Below are positions 7,989-27,599 of a DNA stretch of 32,022 nt, one piece after another. Source of the stretch: Chloroflexota bacterium. GTDB lineage: Bacteria > Chloroflexota > Limnocylindria > Limnocylindrales > CSP1-4. The DNA lies in assembly GCA_031361415.1 (NCBI GenBank), contig JANMCU010000087.1, positions 1 through 32,022 on the forward strand. The letters run 5' to 3'. The notes under the pieces were generated by a model, which worked only from the letters and a program-made list of their open reading frames with translations, was not told where the DNA came from and searched no databases. Made by a program: the position numbers and the translations under genes. Positions within the stretch are counted from its first letter, which is position 1. Every line of letters starts with the position of its first letter.

Positions 7989-8221
7989 GGGCGGGCTCCT
8001 CGGCTGATGGCGTCCCTCCGCACATTGTCGGTGGCGACGGGCACACTGTCGTTTTCTCGACCTTGCGGAACCGTGACACGAGGTGAAGCCGGGTTCGTTG
8101 CCGGCGCATCGTGATTCCCGCGGGCGACGCGTCAGACCCTCCCGGACAGTCGCAACGTCGACCGTGTCGAACCGTGCCGGCGGCAGATCGTTCAGCGCCG
8201 GTCCTCGAGCTCCTCCGACGT

Positions 8222-8325
8222 TGAGTCAGCAAGCGACTCAATTTGACCGGCAGTGAGCGTGCCGCTGCCGGAATTGCGACCGATCGCCTCGTGGTGTTGG
8301 CGATTCTGAGTCGCCAAACGACTCA
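8222..8325. repeat. 104-bp dyad element, copy 1 (two TGAGTC-N7-GACTCA palindromes)
   Basis: Palindromes at 8222-8240 and 8307-8325; same architecture at 16866-16969. Confidence 0.8.
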
Positions 8326-8360
8326 CGGCGCCTTCCTCCCCTTCGTCCCGGCCGGGTGCC

Positions 8361-9650
8361 TCAGGCGCGACCGGCCGGAGCCGTGAGCTCGGGCGATGGA
8401 TCCGGCGGGGTCGCGCGCGTCCGGACCCGGAGGGCCACCACGATCGCGCCGACGAGGAATACCGCGGCACCCGCCCAGAACGGGCCGGTCGGGCCCGCAA
8501 CGGCCGACACCGCGCCGCCGACGAGCGGCCCGATGATCCCGGCCGCGTACAGGGGCAGGTAGACGAGGTTGAGCGTCTGGGAGCGTCGGTCGGCCGGAAC
8601 CTCCGTGGCGAGCAGGCTGAAGACCATCGCACCGACGAGGCCGTTGGCCGCGGTGAAGACGAGGATCGAGGCCGCCAGCGGCGGGATCGCGTGGATCAGT
8701 GGAACGGCCAGCAGGGCGAAGCCGCCGACGAAGAGCGACACGATCAGGACCGGCCGGAACCCGATCCGGTCGCCGACGACCCCGCCGAGCGGCGCGATCA
8801 GCGCCCCGACGAATGCGGCCGTGCCCGCCACGAACCCGATCGACGAGGCGAGGCCGGGGCCCGTTCCGACGATCGACTCGACGATCAGTGCCTGGTACGG
8901 CCTACTCATCTGGTTGGCGACGAACGCCACGCCGTAGATCGCGAAGATCCGCCGGACCGTGGGGTCGCCGAGGACGCTGCGCAACGCCCCATAAGCCAGG
9001 GGGAGGATCCGACCCGCGGGGACGACGGGCGGCCGGACCTCCGTCGATCCGAACCAGATCACGGCCGCGGTCGCGATCGACAACGCGGCCGACACCCAGA
9101 AGATCGACGGGAGCGGCCAGTGCAGCCCATCGACGAGGAATCCGCCGAGCGTCGGCCCGATCGTGAACCCGATCGGGCCGGACGCACCGAACAGCGCGCT
9201 CACCGTGCCGATCCGGTGGCGTGGCACGACGTCCCGGATCGCGCCGAGCATGATTCCGGTGTTCCCGAGCTGGAAGCCGATCAGGAGCAGGCTCACCGCC
9301 AGCTGCCACGGCTCGCGCGAGAGCGCGACGCATGCGAACACGACCGCCTCGACGAGGCAGCTCCGGACGACGACGGCCTTGCGGCTGTACTTGTCGGCCC
9401 ACACGCCCCACAGCGGAACGAGCGGCATCCCGACGACGAAGATGAGCGCGGAGAACAGCCCGACGAACGGCGCTCGATCCGCATCCGGGACGCCCACGAT
9501 CCGGAGGTATGGCGCCAGGAACGAGAACACCTGGCTGACGCCGATGCCTTCGACCATCGAGGTCAACCAGAAGACGACGACGATCCGCTTCCAGTCGGAT
9601 CGGCCGTCGCGCTCTCGGTCGCGTGGTTCCGGGGCGGGCTCGGCTGACAT
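8361..9650 (-). CDS. MFS transporter (DHA1-like)
   Basis: GVWADKYSRK and GVVGDRIGFR motif-A repeats, about 12 TM; ATG 9650 lies 8 nt after TAGGCT. Confidence 0.9.
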   Translation of the reverse strand: MSAEPAPEPRDRERDGRSDWKRIVVVFWLTSMVEGIGVSQVFSFLAPYLRIVGVPDADRAPFVGLFSALIFVVGMPLVPLWGVWADKYSRKAVVVRSCLVEAVVFACVALSREPWQLAVSLLLIGFQLGNTGIMLGAIRDVVPRHRIGTVSALFGASGPIGFTIGPTLGGFLVDGLHWPLPSIFWVSAALSIATAAVIWFGSTEVRPPVVPAGRILPLAYGALRSVLGDPTVRRIFAIYGVAFVANQMSRPYQALIVESIVGTGPGLASSIGFVAGTAAFVGALIAPLGGVVGDRIGFRPVLIVSLFVGGFALLAVPLIHAIPPLAASILVFTAANGLVGAMVFSLLATEVPADRRSQTLNLVYLPLYAAGIIGPLVGGAVSAVAGPTGPFWAGAAVFLVGAIVVALRVRTRATPPDPSPELTAPAGRA

Positions 9651-9761
9651 GGCGACGAAGCCTACCGGGTCCGGGGAGGCCGATGTCCGCCGGATCCCCG
9701 GGGTCCACCCGAACCGACTGCGCCAACCGGACGTAGACTCGATCGAGGAAGGGAGGCGAGC

Positions 9762-10625
9762 ATGCTCGGTCGCTACGTGACCCGCGCGGTCGATGCGCAG
9801 AACCGCTGGTCGAAGCCGCTCGGCGACTTCAATCACCGCTGGCTCGGCGCGCTGTTCCATTCGATCCGACCGGTCCAGAACTTCCTCAACGGCACGTGGC
9901 TCGGCCATCCGGTCCACGCCGTCGTCACCGACATTCCGATCGGCGCGCTGACGGTCTCGATCATCGCCGACGTCATCGGCCAGGCCCTCGTCGCGGACGT
10001 CTCCCTGCTGCTCGGCGTGCTCGGGATGGTCGCCGCGGCCGTGACCGGCGCGGCGGATTACGCCGAGGTCGACGGGACCGCTCGCAACCGGGCGACCGTC
10101 CACTCAGCGATCATGGTCGTCGCGCTCGTCCTGTACGCGATCTCGCTCGCGATCCGCAGCGGCAGCCCGTCGGACCGGCTCGCGCCGATCGCCATCGCGC
10201 TCGTCGCGTACGGCCTGTTGACCCTCGGGGCATCGATCGGCGGCGATCTCGTCTTCCTGGTCGGGACCCACGTCAACCGCCACGCCTGGCGCGGCGCCGG
10301 CGCGAAGTGGATCAAGCTCGATCTCGGCGGCCTCGACGACATCCCCGCCGGCGGCCCGACGAAGCTCAAGGCGGGGATCAATGAGCTCGCGATCGTCCGC
10401 GACGGGGATCGCATCCTCGCGGTCCACGCCCAGTGCGCCCACGCCGGGGGCCCACTGGCCGAGGGCACGCTCGTCGGCGATGCCATCCAGTGCCCGTGGC
10501 ACGGCTCTCGCTTCCGATTGGCCGACGGCCACGTCGTGCGCGGACCGTCGATGTACGACCAACCGGCCTACGACGTGCGCCGCGTCGAGTCAGGTGGCTG
10601 GGAGGTTCGCCGTCAGACGTCGTGA
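9762..10625 (+). CDS. Membrane (DUF2231-like) plus Rieske [2Fe-2S] domain protein
   Basis: GTWLGHPVH and TM block, then CAHAGG...CPWHGS Rieske motif; GGAGG RBS. Confidence 0.9.
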   Translation: MLGRYVTRAVDAQNRWSKPLGDFNHRWLGALFHSIRPVQNFLNGTWLGHPVHAVVTDIPIGALTVSIIADVIGQALVADVSLLLGVLGMVAAAVTGAADYAEVDGTARNRATVHSAIMVVALVLYAISLAIRSGSPSDRLAPIAIALVAYGLLTLGASIGGDLVFLVGTHVNRHAWRGAGAKWIKLDLGGLDDIPAGGPTKLKAGINELAIVRDGDRILAVHAQCAHAGGPLAEGTLVGDAIQCPWHGSRFRLADGHVVRGPSMYDQPAYDVRRVESGGWEVRRQTS

Positions 10626-10831
10626 CGCGCCAGCTCAAGCGGCTCCTCGAGACGGGGGGCCGCGGCCATCCCGGCGGAACGAGACACGTACGCGGCCGGT
10701 GCGGCGGCCCGAACGGGGTCGAGCTATGCGCTTTCGACGACGAGGAGGCGAACAGCGACCGTCGACTCGCCACGGGCTGACCGGCGGGTGATCACGTCGT
10801 CTGCATCGACGCCCGCCGTTCAAGCCCGCCG

Positions 10832-11395
10832 ATGACCGCGCCGGGCGATCCGATCGAGGTCCCCGTTCCTAGCCTCGTCGTTCTCATCGGTGCGGCGGGC
10901 GCCGGCAAGTCGACCCTCGCCCGTCGTCTGTTCGAGCCAGCGGAGATCCTGTCATCCGACGCGCTGCGCGAGGCCCTGACCGGCGATCCGGCCGATCAGA
11001 GCGCCACCCGGCCGGCGTTCGCGATCCTGCACCGCGAGGTCCGTCGCCGGCTCGCGAACGGTCGGCTCGTCGTCGTCGATGCGACCAATGTGACCGCGGC
11101 AGCCAGGGCTCCGCTGCGTCGCCTGGCCGGAGTGGCGGGCGTTCGCGCGATCGCGATCGTCCTCGCTCCCGTGGCGGCGGACGTCCATGCACGGAATGCC
11201 GGCCGGACCGGGCGGGTCGTGCCCATCGATATCGTCGACCGCCATCTTGCCGCCCTGCGGGCCCTCGGCTCGTCGGCCGAGGCCATCGTTGCGGCGCTCG
11301 CGGCAGAGGGGTTCACGCAGACGCACGTGCTCCGCTCGGTCGGCGAGCTGGACTCGATCACCGCCGTGCGCGTCGAGGTCGTCAGGCGTCCCTGA
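10832..11395 (+). CDS. Stand-alone P-loop kinase (AAA_33, Pnkp kinase-like)
   Basis: LVVLIGAAGAGKST, LSSD, DQSAT, VVVDATN, RNAGR motifs. Confidence 0.85.
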   Translation: MTAPGDPIEVPVPSLVVLIGAAGAGKSTLARRLFEPAEILSSDALREALTGDPADQSATRPAFAILHREVRRRLANGRLVVVDATNVTAAARAPLRRLAGVAGVRAIAIVLAPVAADVHARNAGRTGRVVPIDIVDRHLAALRALGSSAEAIVAALAAEGFTQTHVLRSVGELDSITAVRVEVVRRP

Positions 11396-11684
11396 CCCGA
11401 CCGAACTTCCGCGCCCGCAGCTCGACCCAGACGCCGTTCCGGAGGTAGACGTCGTCGCGGCAGATGTCGAGCGCCGCCTGCTCGTCGGTCGCCCGGAACA
11501 GCACGAGCGTGGCCGACACGTCGGTAAAGGCGCCGGCCTCGATCACGATTCCCTGCTGTTTCAGCTCCTGGAGGCGGGCAATGTGCTCGGCCCGGAACGG
11601 CGCGCGGGTCTCGGCGGCGTCCGGGGCGTAGGTTGCCTCGACCAGCCAGACGGGCTCGATCGGGGTGCCGGGAAGATCAGTCAT
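11382..11684 (-). CDS. YciI family protein
   Basis: RAPFRAEHIARL, AGAF, DDVY..NGVW; GGAGG RBS before ATG 11684. Confidence 0.85.
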   Translation of the reverse strand: MTDLPGTPIEPVWLVEATYAPDAAETRAPFRAEHIARLQELKQQGIVIEAGAFTDVSATLVLFRATDEQAALDICRDDVYLRNGVWVELRARKFGRVRDA

Positions 11685-11712
11685 CTTGCCTCCGTCGTGC
11701 ATTGGGGGATGA

Positions 11713-12591
11713 TCAGACGCCCGACGTGGCCGATCCCCCGGCGATCAGGGCGACCGCGATGACCGCCATGATGATCCCGACCAGGTGGCTCAAGGTCACC
11801 CGCTCGCGGAGCACGGCGACGGCGAGAATGACCGTCGTCACCGGGTAGAGCGAGCTCAGCGTGGCCGCGACATCGAGCCGCCCGGCCTGGGTCGCGAGGA
11901 TGTAGAGGCCGTTCCCCGCAAGATCGAGGCTTGCGGTCGCCAGCAGCGCCGGGATCACCGGACGCGGAACGCGCCACGGCCGCCGGCCGAGGATGACGAG
12001 CGCGACGATCGGGACGAGCGAACCCGCCTTGATCACCGCCAGCGGCCATGCGACCCGATGCTCGGGGAACGCCCCGACGGCGATGTTGAACAGCCCGAGG
12101 CCGATACCGCCGAGCAATGCGTATTCGATCCCGGACCGCCGACCGCCCGGATCCGCCGAGCGGGACACGAGGATGACTGCGGCCAGCGCGAGCCCGATCC
12201 CGACGACGACCTCGATGCCCGGCCAGCCCTCCGTGACGAGGCCGACGATGACCGGCAGCGTCGCCGCGATCACCCCGGTCACGGGGGCGACGACCCCCAT
12301 TCGGCCGACCGCGAGGCCCGTGTACAGCCCGAGGATGCCGGCGACGGCGAGGATACCGGCGAGCACTGCGAGGCCCAGCGTCGGCAGGCCGGGGATCGGC
12401 TCGCCGGTCGCGAGAGCGATCCCGACCATGAGGATCACCCCGATCACGTCGACGCCGATCGCGATCCCGAGGACGGGTGCGCGCCTGCTCGTCCAGCCGC
12501 CCCCGAAGTCGCCGGCACCCCAGGCGACGGCCGACGCGAGTCCGAAGACGACGACGGCGAGGCCCGGTCCGGCCGGATCAGCCGTTGGCAA
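11713..12591 (-). CDS. DMT/EamA family transporter
   Basis: WGAGDFGGG, GRMGVVAP, SSLYPVTTVILA...LRER; about 10 TM. Exact start uncertain (TTG 12591 or GTG 12600). Confidence 0.88.
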   Translation of the reverse strand: MPTADPAGPGLAVVVFGLASAVAWGAGDFGGGWTSRRAPVLGIAIGVDVIGVILMVGIALATGEPIPGLPTLGLAVLAGILAVAGILGLYTGLAVGRMGVVAPVTGVIAATLPVIVGLVTEGWPGIEVVVGIGLALAAVILVSRSADPGGRRSGIEYALLGGIGLGLFNIAVGAFPEHRVAWPLAVIKAGSLVPIVALVILGRRPWRVPRPVIPALLATASLDLAGNGLYILATQAGRLDVAATLSSLYPVTTVILAVAVLRERVTLSHLVGIIMAVIAVALIAGGSATSGV

Positions 12592-14803
12592 CCGCCGCAC
12601 CCGAGCCCGCAGTCGCGCCGGACGGCACCAAGCCGGCCTCAGCCGATCCGTCGTCGACCTCCGTCGGACCCGCGAGCGCGACCACCGCGTCGGCCGAACC
12701 GTGGTAGCGGTCGGACGTCGTCAGGTAGATGACCTGGAAGTCCCTGGCGATCTCGCGGAGCAGCTCCAGGGCCCGCAGAGCACGCTCGTCGTCGAGGGTC
12801 ACGAATGGATCGTCGAAGACGAGCGGCGGCCGCCGGTCGCCGGTGACCAGCCGAACGAGCCCGAGCCGGGCGGCGAGATACACGAGGTCGAGGGTGCCCT
12901 GGCTCAGCGAGCGCACGTCGACCCAGTCGCCCTTCTCCGGCGCGTGGAGCTGGATGTCCAGGGTCCGATCGTCGACGGCGACCCGCCGATAGCGGCCGCC
13001 CGTGATCCGATCGACATCGCCGACCATCTGCTTCTCCAGGAAGCGAGTGGCGGTCTTCATCGTGGTCTGCTCGGCGGTGTCGATCTCCTTGAAGGTCCGG
13101 TCATAGACGCGGGCCCGCCGCTGGAGCGCGCTGAGCTGGTCGCGCCAGCCAACCAGGCGCTCGCTGTGGCCCGCGACCTGCTCGGCGTCGACGCCGTTCG
13201 CCTCGACCCGAGCGCGCGCGTTCGCCTCGTCGTCACGAGCTCGTTCGAGACCGGCCTCGAGATCGCGCACCTCGACCTCGAGCCGTTCTCGTGCCCGTGG
13301 CTCCTTGGCGATCGGCCCGAGCGCCTCGAGGGCGTGGGTCTTCTGCTCGACATCGAGCGCGGCTGCGTCGCGCAGGGCTGGCAGGGTATCGGCCGGCTCC
13401 TTGCCGACGAGCCCATCGAGCTGGGCGGCGAGCCGCTCGATCCGGCTGACGTGCTCCTGTTCGCGAGTCAGCAGGTCGATGGCCGCGGGCAGGTCGTCGA
13501 GCCGAAGACCGGCCAGTTGCTGCGCCGTGTCCGCCTCGGCCTGACGGAGATCCTGTTCCATCTCGGATCGACCGCGCAGCCGGCGGTCGATCTGGACGTC
13601 CCGCAGCTCCGCCTGCATCCGGTCACTGCGCCGCAGCCAGAGCGCGACGAACGCAAGGATGAAGCCGATCCCGGCGGCCGCGCCGCCGAGGAGTTGGGGT
13701 GCCGGGCCGAGATCCAGGATCCCGGTCGCCTTGAGTCCCACGGTCCCCGCCGCCACGACCAGGCCGAGCACGACCAGCCCGAGCGAGATCCGGGACAGCG
13801 GTCGCCAGGTCGGTTCGGGCGGGACTTCGAACGAGACGTCGACCTCGCCGGCGAGCGCCGCGCGCAGCTCGCGGATCTTCGCGTCGAGGGATCCGAGCCG
13901 GCCGACGATCTGCTCGAGAACCGGCAGGGGGTTCTCGGACGGATGGCTGTGGTGCAGCTCGGCGAGCTCCTCGGACACCGCGACAGCCTGGCGGTACCGC
14001 TCGAACCGTTCCTGTGCGTTGACCCGTTCGGCCGTCAGACGCTCGGCCTGGCGGGCTTTCTCGAGGAGGGAACGCCGCTCGGCCAGGTTCGTGTCCGTCT
14101 CGGCCCGCCGCTCGCGTGTGCCCGACAGCGTGTCCCGGTCGCGCTCGAGCTGGGCGAGCGCCAGCTCGCCCTGCTCGACGGCCAGCTTCGCCTGTTCGAC
14201 CGCGTCCTCGGCGACCTTGAGGCGGCCCGGGTTCTTGGCGCCCTTCGTGTTCAACTCGTAGATCGCCTTCTCGAGCTTGCGCCGGGCTCGCGACGTCCCG
14301 CGGTCCGCGCCACTGATCGATGCCTGGAGGCGGTCACGCAACGCGGCCTCGTCCCGATCGAGATCGGCGAGCTCGTGATGCCGGACCGACGCCGTCGAGC
14401 GGAAGAACGCCTCGCTCGGGATGCCGGTCAGCTCGGCCAGCGCCTGGTCGGCGAGGGTCGGGTCGGTGATGGTGGTCCCGTCGACCTCGAGCCGGACCGT
14501 CCCCTTCGCGCCGCGGAACTCCTTCTCGAGCGTGCCGGTCCGTAGACCCTTCTCCTCGTCCTCGATCTCGAATTCGAGCCCGATCACGGGTCGGGCGTCA
14601 TCCGCGGCGTCCCACGAGCGGAGGGCGTCCATGTCGGCGCCACCGCTGGTGACCTTGCGGGTCAGGGCGAGCTCGATCGCGCGCTGGATCGTCGTCTTGC
14701 CGGCCTCGTTCGGGCCGTGAACGATGGTCAGGCCGGGCGACAGCGGGATTTCCAGCTCCCGGTATCGACGGAAGTCGCGCAGGGTCAGGCGGGTGATCCT
14801 CAC
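12578..14803 (-). CDS. SMC/Rad50-like ATPase (YhaN/SbcC-like) with a central TM hairpin
   Basis: Walker A GPNEAGKT, long coiled coils, LSQGT signature, PLVFDDPF Walker B/D-loop; GTGA overlap with the upstream nuclease. Confidence 0.88.
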   Translation of the reverse strand: MRITRLTLRDFRRYRELEIPLSPGLTIVHGPNEAGKTTIQRAIELALTRKVTSGGADMDALRSWDAADDARPVIGLEFEIEDEEKGLRTGTLEKEFRGAKGTVRLEVDGTTITDPTLADQALAELTGIPSEAFFRSTASVRHHELADLDRDEAALRDRLQASISGADRGTSRARRKLEKAIYELNTKGAKNPGRLKVAEDAVEQAKLAVEQGELALAQLERDRDTLSGTRERRAETDTNLAERRSLLEKARQAERLTAERVNAQERFERYRQAVAVSEELAELHHSHPSENPLPVLEQIVGRLGSLDAKIRELRAALAGEVDVSFEVPPEPTWRPLSRISLGLVVLGLVVAAGTVGLKATGILDLGPAPQLLGGAAAGIGFILAFVALWLRRSDRMQAELRDVQIDRRLRGRSEMEQDLRQAEADTAQQLAGLRLDDLPAAIDLLTREQEHVSRIERLAAQLDGLVGKEPADTLPALRDAAALDVEQKTHALEALGPIAKEPRARERLEVEVRDLEAGLERARDDEANARARVEANGVDAEQVAGHSERLVGWRDQLSALQRRARVYDRTFKEIDTAEQTTMKTATRFLEKQMVGDVDRITGGRYRRVAVDDRTLDIQLHAPEKGDWVDVRSLSQGTLDLVYLAARLGLVRLVTGDRRPPLVFDDPFVTLDDERALRALELLREIARDFQVIYLTTSDRYHGSADAVVALAGPTEVDDGSAEAGLVPSGATAGSGAAVANG

Positions 14804-15975
14804 AGCGTGACCTCGTGGCCGGCGAGCAGGAGCCGGCCGAGTCGGAGCACGTCGCGCAGCTCAGCTGCCTCTTCGGCCGACGTGTCGGTGCCGTCCGCCT
14901 CGAGCTCGGCGATTCGGCCTTCGACGTTCCGGATGAATGCGCCGGGGATCGTGTCGGGCGACGGCAGGTTGCCCTGGGTCAGGGCCGGCATCGAGAGGTC
15001 GCGGACGCGGACCTTCAGGAAGCTGCCCTTGAGCTGGTCCTCGATCTCGTCGATCGAGAGGTCGAGCTCGTCGGGCCGGACTCCGGTCAGACGGGCGTCG
15101 AGAACGAGGTCGGGATCGGCCTTCGCCGCGATCGCGGCGACGACCGCAGGTTGGTCGACGACCGTCGACGCGTCGATGTCGAGCTTCTCGAACCGCGTCC
15201 GACCAATCGCACGCTCGTCGATCGTGACCGTGCGCTTGCCATTGGCCTCGTTGAGCTCGACGAGCAGGACCTTGCCGGCGCCGTCCTGGGTGACCGCGAC
15301 GGGCTCCGGCGCGCCCGAGTAGGCCCACGTCGTCGATCCCGCCTTGCCCTGCTGAGCCGAATGCCAATGGCCGAGGGCGAGGTAGTCGAGTCCGGTCGCC
15401 TCGATCTCTTCGCGGGTGAAGACGACCTCGTCGCGGTCGGTCCGGTCCGGGATCGCGAGGGAGCCGTGGACCATCCCGACGTGCCAGGTCGCGCCGTCGC
15501 CGGCGGTCACGTGGAGGTCGCGCAGCGGGCTGTACGGAGCGCGCTTGGTGGCGAAGACCGGGCCGTGGATGATCACGTCGCAGGCAGCGAGATGGATGCT
15601 CGGCCGGTCCGGCGTGAGGACCGTGACCAGATCGTCGTCCTCGCCGGAGCCCGCCAGCGCGGCCAGGTCGTGCACCCGATACAGCGACGAGCGGTCGTAG
15701 ACATCGTGGGTGCCGGGGATCAGGACGGTCCGGATCTTCGCTCCGACGAGTCGCTTCAGCTCGGCCGCGACGCGCTCGACCGAGCGCCGGGGCTGGGTGT
15801 TCGAGTCGAACAGGTCGCCCGCGATCAGCACGACGTCGACCTTCTCGGCGATGGCGAGGTCGACGGTGGCGTTGAAGGCGGCGAACTGGCGCTCGCGCTG
15901 GGCGGCGGCCTGCTCGCCGAGGTCGGTATGGCGCGCGCCGAGGTGGACGTCCGCCGTATGGAGAAGTCGGAGCAT
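14800..15975 (-). CDS. Mre11/SbcD-like metallophosphoesterase (YhaO-like)
   Basis: LHTADVHLG, AGDLFD, PGTHD, HG, YLALGHWH, YSGAPE motifs; likely start MLRLLHTAD. Confidence 0.92.
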   Translation of the reverse strand: MLRLLHTADVHLGARHTDLGEQAAAQRERQFAAFNATVDLAIAEKVDVVLIAGDLFDSNTQPRRSVERVAAELKRLVGAKIRTVLIPGTHDVYDRSSLYRVHDLAALAGSGEDDDLVTVLTPDRPSIHLAACDVIIHGPVFATKRAPYSPLRDLHVTAGDGATWHVGMVHGSLAIPDRTDRDEVVFTREEIEATGLDYLALGHWHSAQQGKAGSTTWAYSGAPEPVAVTQDGAGKVLLVELNEANGKRTVTIDERAIGRTRFEKLDIDASTVVDQPAVVAAIAAKADPDLVLDARLTGVRPDELDLSIDEIEDQLKGSFLKVRVRDLSMPALTQGNLPSPDTIPGAFIRNVEGRIAELEADGTDTSAEEAAELRDVLRLGRLLLAGHEVTL

Positions 15976-16385
15976 CCGGTCGGCCTGGCCTCCCTGTGCC
16001 GTCGCGGGTGGGCGACGAGGCGAGATGACTCGTCCGGCGCCGGGAGCGTCCTCCATCCCGGGCACCGGTCGCGAGCGAAGGCCCGCGACCCGCACCGCCA
16101 CCTCGAGTGTCGGGCCCATTGTGACAGACGCCGTCGACCGAGGGAGGCGCTCGGACCCGTCGCGGCTGGTGGTCCAGGTGTCGCGGCTGTTGCAACGCCC
16201 GTTCCGGACGATCGGTGTATGGTCGGGCCATCGATCAGCCCGTGCGCCCCGAAACAGGGACTCCATCACGGCACCTGGATAGCGCGGCGCCGGCCTCTCC
16301 GACGCATCCGCACCATCCCGCCCGCGTGGTGGCCTCCCCGGTCGTGCCCGGGACCAGTCGCATCGCCCGAGGAGAGGAAGGTTTC

Positions 16386-16724
16386 GTGACTTACGTCGAC
16401 CGAACGTTGACTTGCGTCGACTGCGCAGTGGAGTTCATCCATTCGGCCGCCGACCAGGAGTATTACGTCCAGAAGGGCTTCGCCTCCGACCCGAAGCGCT
16501 GCGCCAGCTGCCGCGCCAGCCGGCGAGCGAGTCGCGAGGCCGGCTACGACGTCCGCGAGATCGGTGGCCCGCGCGGCTACGAGCGCGGCGACGAGCACGT
16601 CGCCCGGGAGTACTTCGCGGTGGTGTGTTCATCGTGTGGCAACCAGGCGCAGGTTCCGTTCAAGCCGCGCATGGATCGGCCGGTCTACTGCTCCGATTGC
16701 TTCCGCCAGGTCAAACCCGACTGA
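16386..16724 (+). CDS. Double zinc-ribbon protein (zf-trcl plus CxxC-x17-CxxC domain)
   Basis: DRTLTCVDC...PKRCASC and CSSC...VPFKP..DRPVYCSDCF; purine-rich RBS before GTG 16386. Confidence 0.9.
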   Translation: MTYVDRTLTCVDCAVEFIHSAADQEYYVQKGFASDPKRCASCRASRRASREAGYDVREIGGPRGYERGDEHVAREYFAVVCSSCGNQAQVPFKPRMDRPVYCSDCFRQVKPD

Positions 16725-16865
16725 TCCTCGGAATCCTCGGGCCAATGGCGTCGCGGAGCTCCGCCTCGGATCTCGGAGGGCCGGCCGCAAGCTCGCTGTC
16801 GCAGACCCGCTGCCATCCTGGCCCCAGCTCGACGAACCAACGGGCGCCGTCTACGTCGGCGCTTT

Positions 16866-16969
16866 TGAGTCGCCACGCGCCTCAGATGTCGGTGCAGCGA
16901 GCGTGATCCCGCCCAGAAACCGACACCTTCACGCTCGCCGGAGCCGGTACTGAGTCACACTCCGACTCA
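16866..16969. repeat. 104-bp dyad element, copy 2
   Basis: TGAGTC-N7-GCCTCA at 16866-16884 and TGAGTC-N7-GACTCA at 16951-16969; centred internal IR GCGAGCGTGA/TCACGCTCGC. Confidence 0.8.
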
Positions 16970-16974
16970 GCGCC

Positions 16975-17013
16975 TGCGTGAGTGCGTGACTGCGTGACTG
17001 CGTGACTGCGTCA
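16975..17013. repeat. 8-bp tandem repeat (TGCGTGAC)n
   Basis: TGCGTGAG TGCGTGAC TGCGTGAC TGCGTGAC TGCGTCA. Confidence 0.9.
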
Positions 17014-17724
17014 AAGGCGGAACACATCCCCGGCGCGGAATCGTTCTCGGTGGCGGCCACGCCAGACCGTCACCCGGCCGCGGCCGTGGACCTGCCAGGC
17101 GCCGCCCTGGCCGACGGCCGCGGTCTCCTCGTCGATCCCGAGCGTGACCAGCGTCCGCGGCGACTGGAGGACGATCATCGCCGTCATCGGCTCGGGCAAC
17201 GCGTCGTAGTGCGGAATGACGGCACCGCTCGGGACGAGGTCGAGCCCGTCGCGCCAGCGGAGCGGCCAGAAGAGCCGTCGCCTGCGGAAGTCCCAGTGGC
17301 GCGCCGCGAGCGTCATCGCGCCGGCCGAGCAGCCGGCGATCGTCGCGCCGCGCCGATGGGCGGCGATGAGCGCGTCCCCGACCGGCGAGCCGACGAGCGT
17401 GTCGGTCAAATGACCCGGCTTGCCGCCCGACAGGTAGATGAGGTCGGCCTCGCCGATCGCCTGGACGTGAGCCTCGTCCTGGGCGTCGGACCGGTCGCGA
17501 ATGAGGACCGGCTCGACCTCCGCGCCGAGCGCGCTGAAGTGCTCGACGCCCATCGACGCCCAGCGCCGGAACACGTCTTCGCCGTCCGGCCAGGACGCGG
17601 TCGGCAGGATCGCGACCCGCGGCCGGCGACGGCCCGTGGCGGCCAGCAGCGCCGCATCGATGCCGCTCATCGCGGGCAGGAACTCGCCGGATCCGATGAG
17701 CGCGATCGGTCCCGATTCCGGCAT
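17011..17724 (-). CDS. Peptidase S51 (cyanophycinase/peptidase E-like)
   Basis: IGSGE, LPTAS, YLSGG, GCSAGA nucleophile elbow, IPHYD, GIDEETA. Confidence 0.88.
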   Translation of the reverse strand: MPESGPIALIGSGEFLPAMSGIDAALLAATGRRRPRVAILPTASWPDGEDVFRRWASMGVEHFSALGAEVEPVLIRDRSDAQDEAHVQAIGEADLIYLSGGKPGHLTDTLVGSPVGDALIAAHRRGATIAGCSAGAMTLAARHWDFRRRRLFWPLRWRDGLDLVPSGAVIPHYDALPEPMTAMIVLQSPRTLVTLGIDEETAAVGQGGAWQVHGRGRVTVWRGRHRERFRAGDVFRL

Positions 17725-17765
17725 GCGGGTGAGCATATCCGTGCCTGTGCGACACTGCCCGCCAC

Positions 17766-27502: not shown

Positions 27503-27599
27503 TGGCGGGAGCGCATGGGAGTCGAACCCACCACGCCGCGCCGAACGCAGCGTCACCGGTGTTGAAGACCGGGGGACCCACCGGGACCCATCCACTCCC
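27503..27599 (-). tRNA. selC: tRNA-Sec (anticodon UCA)
   Basis: GGGAGTGG AT GGGTCC CGGT GGGTCC C CCGGT CTTCAAC ACCGG, long variable arm, GTGGG TTCGACT CCCAT GCGCTCCC G CCA: 8-nt acceptor, 6-bp D stem, G73, encoded CCA. Confidence 0.95.

Follow-up and report, generated by a model that had tools for sequence, protein, structure and literature searches.

Paired gapped palindromes in a Limnocylindrales genome belong to a dispersed repeat family associated with a predicted helix-turn-helix nuclease gene

A 32,022-bp stretch of DNA from a Chloroflexota bacterium (Limnocylindria, Limnocylindrales, CSP1-4; assembly GCA_031361415.1, contig JANMCU010000087.1, positions 1 to 32,022; hereafter the window) carries two 104-bp sequences, each bounded by two gapped palindromes of the form TGAGTC-N7-GACTCA, and the question they raise is what kind of element this is and what spreads it. 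Both are copies of a non-coding, quasi-palindromic dispersed repeat family restricted to the genus, and the family seems to be tied to one conserved gene, lying outside the window, for a DNA-binding nuclease. The association of elements with this gene is observed directly, and what the analysis newly offers is a putative partner gene for the repeat family. In our best reading, held with middling confidence, the two form a partnership resembling that of doublets of repetitive extragenic palindromes (REPs; the doublets are called REPINs) with REP-associated tyrosine transposases (RAYTs), built on a different class of enzyme.

Palindromes with at most one mismatch to the pattern occur four times in the window against 0.08 expected, a number reached in 0 of 100 shuffles, and the start-to-start distance within each pair is 85 bp in both copies. 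A sequence-only reading of the window, made without database searches, had described two 104-bp copies with four gapped palindromes in 85-bp pairs, and its coordinates and sequences were confirmed. Copy 1 (8219-8328, no strand assigned; 89 bits with covariance model R1 and 92 bits with nhmmer) consists of perfect 19-bp palindromes at 8222-8240 and 8307-8325 and of a 66-bp core between them (8241-8306), in which the alignment of copies and the box positions place a GAGCGTG box within 8250-8261 and a central GGAATTGCGACCGA. Copy 2 (16863-16972, again without strand; 74 bits with R1) has a left palindrome with one mismatch (16866-16884, GCCTCA) and a perfect right one (16951-16969). Its core holds a perfect 10-bp inverted repeat (16897-16906/16929-16938) whose arms, GCGAGCGTGA and TCACGCTCGC, are by reading of the sequence and of the box orientations two GAGCGTG boxes facing each other across 16897-16938. 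This internal repeat, and the GCAG(T/C)GAGCGTG found at offset 28 in both copies, had also been picked out from the letters alone, and both are present. Copy 1 belongs to the youngest subfamily ('A') of the source genome (G000), its 66-nt interior being 86% identical to a copy next to the partner gene (G000:C198:7571), while copy 2 is old and diverged, with arms and spacing retained and an interior only 56% identical to that of the closest other copy. Contigs carrying other copies part from the window sequence at 8222 and at 8326/8329, and the repeat unit therefore runs from palindrome to palindrome.

The source metagenome-assembled genome (MAG; 2.74 Mb, 70% G+C, 82% complete, 285 contigs, the window being contig C271) contains about 40 copies. 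Perfect 19-mers number 21, against 0 for a reversed control, and sites with at most two mismatches pair 15 times at 85 bp and four times at 84 bp, with five pairs at other distances below 300 bp. The expectation of a dispersed REPIN-like family, or of one resembling MITEs (transposable elements of the miniature inverted-repeat type), with further copies at fixed spacing and with conserved arms and geometry around a variable interior, was thus borne out by the genome scan. A profile built from those 19 copies matched 44 loci at E < 1, 33 of them with at least 24 bits, and the covariance model gave 78 matches, both strands counted. The half-site spacer is N7 in 54 sites and N6 in 16, each other length giving 1-5 sites, which is the control level; the N6 sites constitute a sister family with palindromes 94-95 bp apart. 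Elements of this sister family, ~118 bp long and with N6 in both palindromes, lie on contigs C212, C213, C27, C47, C143, C207, C199 and C93. Palindromes occur only in pairs inside the element and never free-standing; no longer-range pairs were seen within 300 bp in the source genome or, by eye, in position lists of five better assemblies.

Every element has the layout palindrome, 66-bp core, palindrome, with half-sites TGAGTC/TGACTC. The palindrome arms are 91-94% paired across copies, and the common changes in them are all compensated, namely a replacement of the half-site's middle G by C (GC 38 / CG 7; GC 39 / CG 8) and a change from G-C to A-T at the seventh position. The two palindromes of one element carry the same arm variant, and the sequence of the N7 spacer is free to vary. 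The core is loosely palindromic (58% paired versus ~30-35% in slid controls), with the CGAGCGTG box at two fixed offsets and in all four combinations of orientation. Interior identity extends from 80-89% in the young subfamily that includes copy 1 to ~56% for copy 2, arms and spacing being constant.

Such compensated stems could belong to a structured RNA, for instance a stabiliser in the 3' untranslated region, a terminator or a small RNA, and this had been among the roles suggested from the sequence. The pairing of the arms, where G-C pairs give way to C-G or to A-U by compensatory change, would suit it, as would the position of many copies just past stop codons. However, no Rfam family was matched at gathering score by the element, the only match in the window being tRNA-Sec, and the two strands score alike (median difference 13.7 bits). 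Copies lie sense to the upstream gene seven times and antisense 12 times (p = 0.36), with no strand bias, and six stand between divergent genes. It is the stem sequence that is conserved and the loops that are free, the core box takes every orientation, and there is no T-run. We therefore regard an RNA role as very improbable. RNAalifold did not decide whether the arms form local hairpins or pair over a long range, each of the four being complementary to the others.

The candidate partner gene (G000:C198:7829-8626) is conserved and syntenic and occupies a single locus. In the source genome it is bracketed within 260 bp by three copies of the element, one 150 bp upstream and two downstream, where simple arithmetic from 40 copies in 2.74 Mb leads one to expect ~0.02. 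Its closest homologues in other genomes of the genus (48-59% identity) have an element beside the gene at 9 of 11 loci, and two loci added from G017 and G003 bring the count to 11 of 13 orthologous loci. The possibility that copies flank a nuclease gene, also raised from the window alone, thus materialised elsewhere in the genome. All 11 positive loci have an upstream copy, ~45-60 bp from the inferred start codon (150 bp in G000), and by eye this copy directly precedes a TGnTAT promoter-like motif of the gene at 12 loci. Additional downstream copies are present in G056, G007 and G045, and upstream copies are in tandem in G048, G042 and G021. The arms of the proximal copies vary by species (GAGTC, GACTC, GACCC and others) and are always palindromic. 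Since the locus is syntenic across these genomes, the gene is vertically inherited, as RAYTs are. The youngest subfamily of the source genome, window copy 1 included, centres on the gene-proximal copy, and a gene-proximal copy is the nearest neighbour (80-89%) of five of the six other subfamily-A copies.

In the 40 bases leading up to the gene, a conserved TG(C/G)TAT was seen by eye in 12 genomes (loci L119-L130) at a distance of 5-12 nt from the inferred start codon, which suggests a leaderless mRNA and a -10 box of the extended type.

The encoded protein, of 266 residues, joins a HipB/XRE-type helix-turn-helix (HTH) to a PD-(D/E)XK nuclease fold. In Pfam its HTH_3 domain is matched at E = 2.5e-7, and the remainder has sub-threshold matches only (MmcB-like, PDDEXK_1, Hjc). 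In the AlphaFold model (predicted local distance difference test, pLDDT, 90) the N-terminal domain matches ClgR and HipB (Z 9.6-10.0), the structures compared including XRE/HipB HTH dimers (PDB 4pu3, 4yg1 and 8ezt). Residues ~85-240 match PD-(D/E)XK folds, among them XisH-like 2okf_B (Z 9.8, root-mean-square deviation 3.1, 116 residues aligned), Upx (Z 9.5), NucS 2vld (Z 9.0, deviation 3.0, 103 aligned) and AF1548 (1y88, Z 8.5); further matches, to the R2 endonuclease domain and to SduA, came from Foldseek. Across 60 homologues there is no change at E111, D124 or E139, while K141 is retained in at least 90%, and this D...(D/E)xK motif, taken with the modelled fold, assigns the protein to the PD-(D/E)XK nuclease superfamily. 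A homodimer model through the HTH domain scored 0.52 against 0.00 for the best control and so passed a mark that 20 of 30 proteins with structures solved as one-chain pairs attain, as does 1 of 23 with single-chain structures, although the alignment was one made for this analysis and the pass may reflect memory of solved XRE/HipB dimers; its runs share at least 91% of contacts, with a partner pLDDT of at least 86. Databases label the protein family 'XRE-family regulator' or hypothetical and nothing more. Within the class it is confined to one family (f1), in which 35 of 91 genomes carry it, versus 0 of 209 elsewhere.

The palindromes are probably binding sites of this predicted dimeric HTH protein; paired protein-binding sites, one of several roles considered at the outset, are now the most likely one. 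In the mechanism that we propose, the HTH protein would bind each palindrome as a symmetric dimer, a mode of binding that would keep the half-sites conserved and the spacer length fixed and would leave the spacer sequence free. Recognition of the whole element would take two dimers at a distance of eight helical turns, the nuclease domain may cut at or near the element, and the protein may in this way copy, move or maintain the repeats in trans.

Several observations weigh against such a partnership. Binding, cutting and mobilisation by the HTH-nuclease, that is everything beyond the association, are what we infer from it, and much of the pattern could go back to a single ancestral insertion that was retained as a promoter element, the more so because the synteny of the locus means that the 11 positive loci are not independent. 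The G/C swap in the half-sites always keeps the palindrome, which fits a hairpin or cruciform as well as a symmetric dimer. Gene and element do not always travel together: an orthologue is present in G057 with zero elements and in G015 with only six model matches, all away from the gene, G019 with its 44 matches (~22 copies) has the gene only as an 80-residue fragment containing TAG, and in G006, G024 and G050, with 16-31 matches each, no close orthologue was found, these MAGs being 71-84% complete. The DNA contigs of the sequencing runs that were examined show no joint skipping the element, and hence no empty-site allele. At 24 loci of other genera, a de novo search next to homologues for perfect hairpins (7 bp or longer) gave no recurring pairs.

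The idea that every paralogue of the protein is paired with a dispersed repeat of its own fails for the paralogue on C14. The abundant second repeat stands beside that paralogue only in G000 (1 of 16 loci), and the paralogue's own flanking GCGCCTG..CAGGCGC palindrome is not dispersed. The idea holds for the paralogue at G000:C248:483-1238 only as a low-copy repeat: this gene is flanked on both sides by a different quasi-palindromic repeat of ~130 bp (250-377 and 1265-1396) that shares the GAGCGTG box and has weaker copies on C20 and C153. The species-specific arms GACCC-N7-GGGTC, a motif that chance alone makes too frequent in DNA of 70% G+C for dispersal to be judged, formed only one extra 85-bp pair in G053 and G042.

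The main rival explanation, which we consider unlikely, is an ordinary selfish REP/MITE-like repeat moved by some other enzyme, either not found or unassembled; the copy at the gene would be an old insertion inherited with the syntenic locus and perhaps co-opted as an operator. The adjacency may then be a single event, the many copies without an intact close orthologue in G019, G006, G024 and G050 would fit, as would the gene without elements in G057, and the enzyme could have escaped assembly, given that MAGs often lose insertion sequences (ISs) and that the source genome is 82% complete in 285 contigs. What speaks against this rival is that copies differ in their persistence. Elements are gained and lost between species: at loci orthologous to those of the window copies, the only ordinary copies compared, the element is present at 0 of 11 in relatives for copy 1 (spacer there 44-196 bp, versus 309 bp in the window) and at 0 of 9 for copy 2 (spacer there 19-592 bp), a look at orthologous loci having been proposed in the sequence-only reading, whereas the gene-proximal copy is kept or renewed at 11 of 13 loci. 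In seven genomes extra copies stand in tandem or on the other side of the gene, and the youngest subfamily is centred on the gene-proximal copy. No target-site duplication was detected (the longest direct repeat across the borders averaged 2.78 nt versus 2.66 in mismatched-flank controls, 18 copies) and the 68 flanking open reading frames (ORFs) include no transposase. The RAYT/Y1 HUH transposase domain PF01797 was matched in 0 of 43 genomes of the genus (the source genome being 82% complete), the same search matching 6 of 14 control genomes; the involvement of a RAYT/TnpA enzyme, which had been entertained from the window alone, was therefore rejected, and with it RAYT/IS200 transposases as mobilisers.

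Placement of the copies bears on a further alternative, in which they serve the host as arrays of binding sites for the HTH protein, for instance as operators or as sites of chromosome organisation or cruciform processing, and owe their spread to recombination or template switching and not to the protein. Fixed half-site spacing favours it, as do a geometry like that of HipB operators, the copy just upstream of the promoter-like TGnTAT motif at 12 loci, and the fact that old copies such as window copy 2 keep arms and 85-bp spacing while the interior has drifted. However, with genes placed by a codon-usage gene caller made for this analysis, the copies of the source genome are intergenic, one doubtful copy excepted, and stand beside unrelated genes, mostly at 3' ends, unlike a regulon: of 33 copies, 14 lie between convergent, nine between tandem and six between divergent genes, four having one side unknown, and of the adjoining gene ends 37 are 3' ends and 16 are 5' ends. 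Assorted housekeeping genes without relation to one another (dnaA/dnaN, rpsB, ruvA, dxs and others) make up the 68 flanking ORFs. A range of 0 to ~40 copies among species of one genus is likewise hard to square with a conserved host function, and we hold this alternative to be quite improbable. One copy (G000:C188:3438-3542) lies 66 bp past dnaA in the 750-bp dnaA-dnaN spacer, a possible replication-origin region.

As for the neighbourhood of the window copies, the ORFs to the left of copy 1 have no Pfam match, and copy 2 does lie, as first described, in a spacer on which two genes converge, one of zf_Tbcl type (16326-16724, +) and one of Peptidase_S51 type (17011-17736, -). A little to the left of copy 2 (16722-16830) is a member of a second, unrelated repeat family with a ~75-bp consensus containing the palindrome GCGGAGCTCCGC; it gives 52 nhmmer matches in the source genome, and a reverse-complement copy was seen by eye in the same convergent spacer of G024. 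Directly right of copy 2 (16976-17012) is a tandem array of about four GCGTGACT-like 8-mers. The tRNA-Sec gene of the window is at 27507-27599 (-) (Rfam RF01852, 68.3 bits).

Across the genus the covariance model finds the family in 25 of 43 genomes, with 0 to ~40 copies each (a tally that includes the unpublished G010). In a family-wide sample, four of five genomes of this genus have a match, and among 145 genomes of other genera four do, each with one weak match. The full double-palindrome pattern occurs at 41 loci in the genomes of 185,579 species. True homologues account for 21 of these, in MAGs labelled Limnocylindrales, Chloroflexi or Chloroflexia and one labelled Verrucomicrobiia, and two are unrelated singletons. 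The other 18 were rejected as members, since in these MAGs, from Chitinophagaceae (Bacteroidota) and Verrucomicrobiaceae (Verrucomicrobiota), the palindrome is repeated in tandem every 21 bp. These arrays (loci L017-L054, L046) are long, with a 21-bp period and variable spacers, and differ in architecture.

Avoidance of restriction was considered as well, with GAGTC as a type IIS site and GANTC as a methylase site; GAGTC has an observed/expected ratio of 0.95 and is therefore not avoided in the genome. A literature search on the two hexamers returned only unrelated papers, and no paper was found that joins Limnocylindria or Limnocylindrales with REP or MITE terms.

We return to the partnership between repeat and HTH-nuclease gene. 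A broader form of it would hold that in Limnocylindrales vertically inherited HTH-PD-(D/E)XK nucleases each recognise and propagate their own double-palindrome family, which would make the arrangement a functional counterpart of REPIN-RAYT systems in which a restriction-endonuclease fold takes the place of the HUH transposase; this generalisation is tentative and rather doubtful. To our knowledge, REPs and REPINs are the best-studied long-lived intragenomic replicators bound to a domesticated enzyme, and that enzyme has so far always been a RAYT. A second, unrelated class of enzyme in such a relationship would, if true, show that this lifestyle has evolved more than once, would provide a testable candidate for the spread of palindromic repeats in Chloroflexota, and would draw attention to an HTH-nuclease specific for a defined 19-bp sequence. 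Should the link with the gene be only historical, the family would be one more lineage-specific intergenic repeat. In practice, the family explains assembly breaks in these genomes and gives annotators a model for repeat masking.

Among known operators, those of HipB type have 5-bp half-sites separated by 8 bp, and the centre-to-centre distance of half-sites, 13 bp, is the same here. Unlike HipB, the present system has no HipA-like kinase, its HTH is fused to a nuclease fold, and its sites are dispersed genome-wide. The HAIR operator of HspR, with consensus CTTGAGT-N7-ACTCAAG upstream of chaperone genes, was considered and rejected, since TTGAGT and ACTCAA are here 9 bp apart and not 7 and the neighbours are not chaperone genes.

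Neisseria intergenic mosaic elements (NIMEs) consist of dRS3 repeats (6-bp inverted arms and a variable spacer) that flank variable RS segments; dRS3 also occurs singly and serves as an integration site for phages or IS110-type elements. The likeness lies in a repeat of 19-20 bp, its inverted arms conserved and its centre variable, that brackets a variable segment of 50-150 bp. Sequence and phylum differ, and here the palindromes occur only as 85-bp pairs.

MITEs are non-autonomous derivatives of insertion sequences. The family shares with them a length of ~100 bp, a non-coding, intergenic character and inverted ends (TGAGTCG...CGACTCA); its insertions, too, are polymorphic between species, and assemblies break at the copies. 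Unlike MITEs, it lacks target-site duplications, and the gene associated with it is syntenic and has entire elements at its flanks instead of half ends. No parent IS that shares these ends and encodes a known transposase came to light, in MAGs, which often lack IS elements.

The closest parallel is with REPINs, or REP doublets, and RAYTs of Pseudomonas and E. coli (PMC3116915, PMC2817692). The partner here is an HTH-PD-(D/E)XK nuclease and not a Y1 HUH transposase, and the REPIN/RAYT papers listed in the search name no PD-(D/E)XK partner. Each palindrome is here two-fold symmetric with a free 7-bp spacer, and copy number is lower. Unlike REPs, for which a GTAG or CGTC tetranucleotide tag at one end is described in PMC3733652, the element has no such tag and ends in TGAGTC and GACTCA, with variable flanking triplets. 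In other respects the two agree. Both are short extragenic palindromes arranged as doublets of fixed spacing in tens of copies, both leave no target-site duplication, and both combine diverse interiors with conservation of the two recognition palindromes. For REP doublets, a trans-acting dimer recognising the doublet has been proposed, and RAYT genes are vertically inherited, according to PMC3116915. In the genus studied here, too, the repeat clusters beside a single-copy, vertically inherited gene, in this case one for an HTH-PD-(D/E)XK protein and at 11 of 13 loci.

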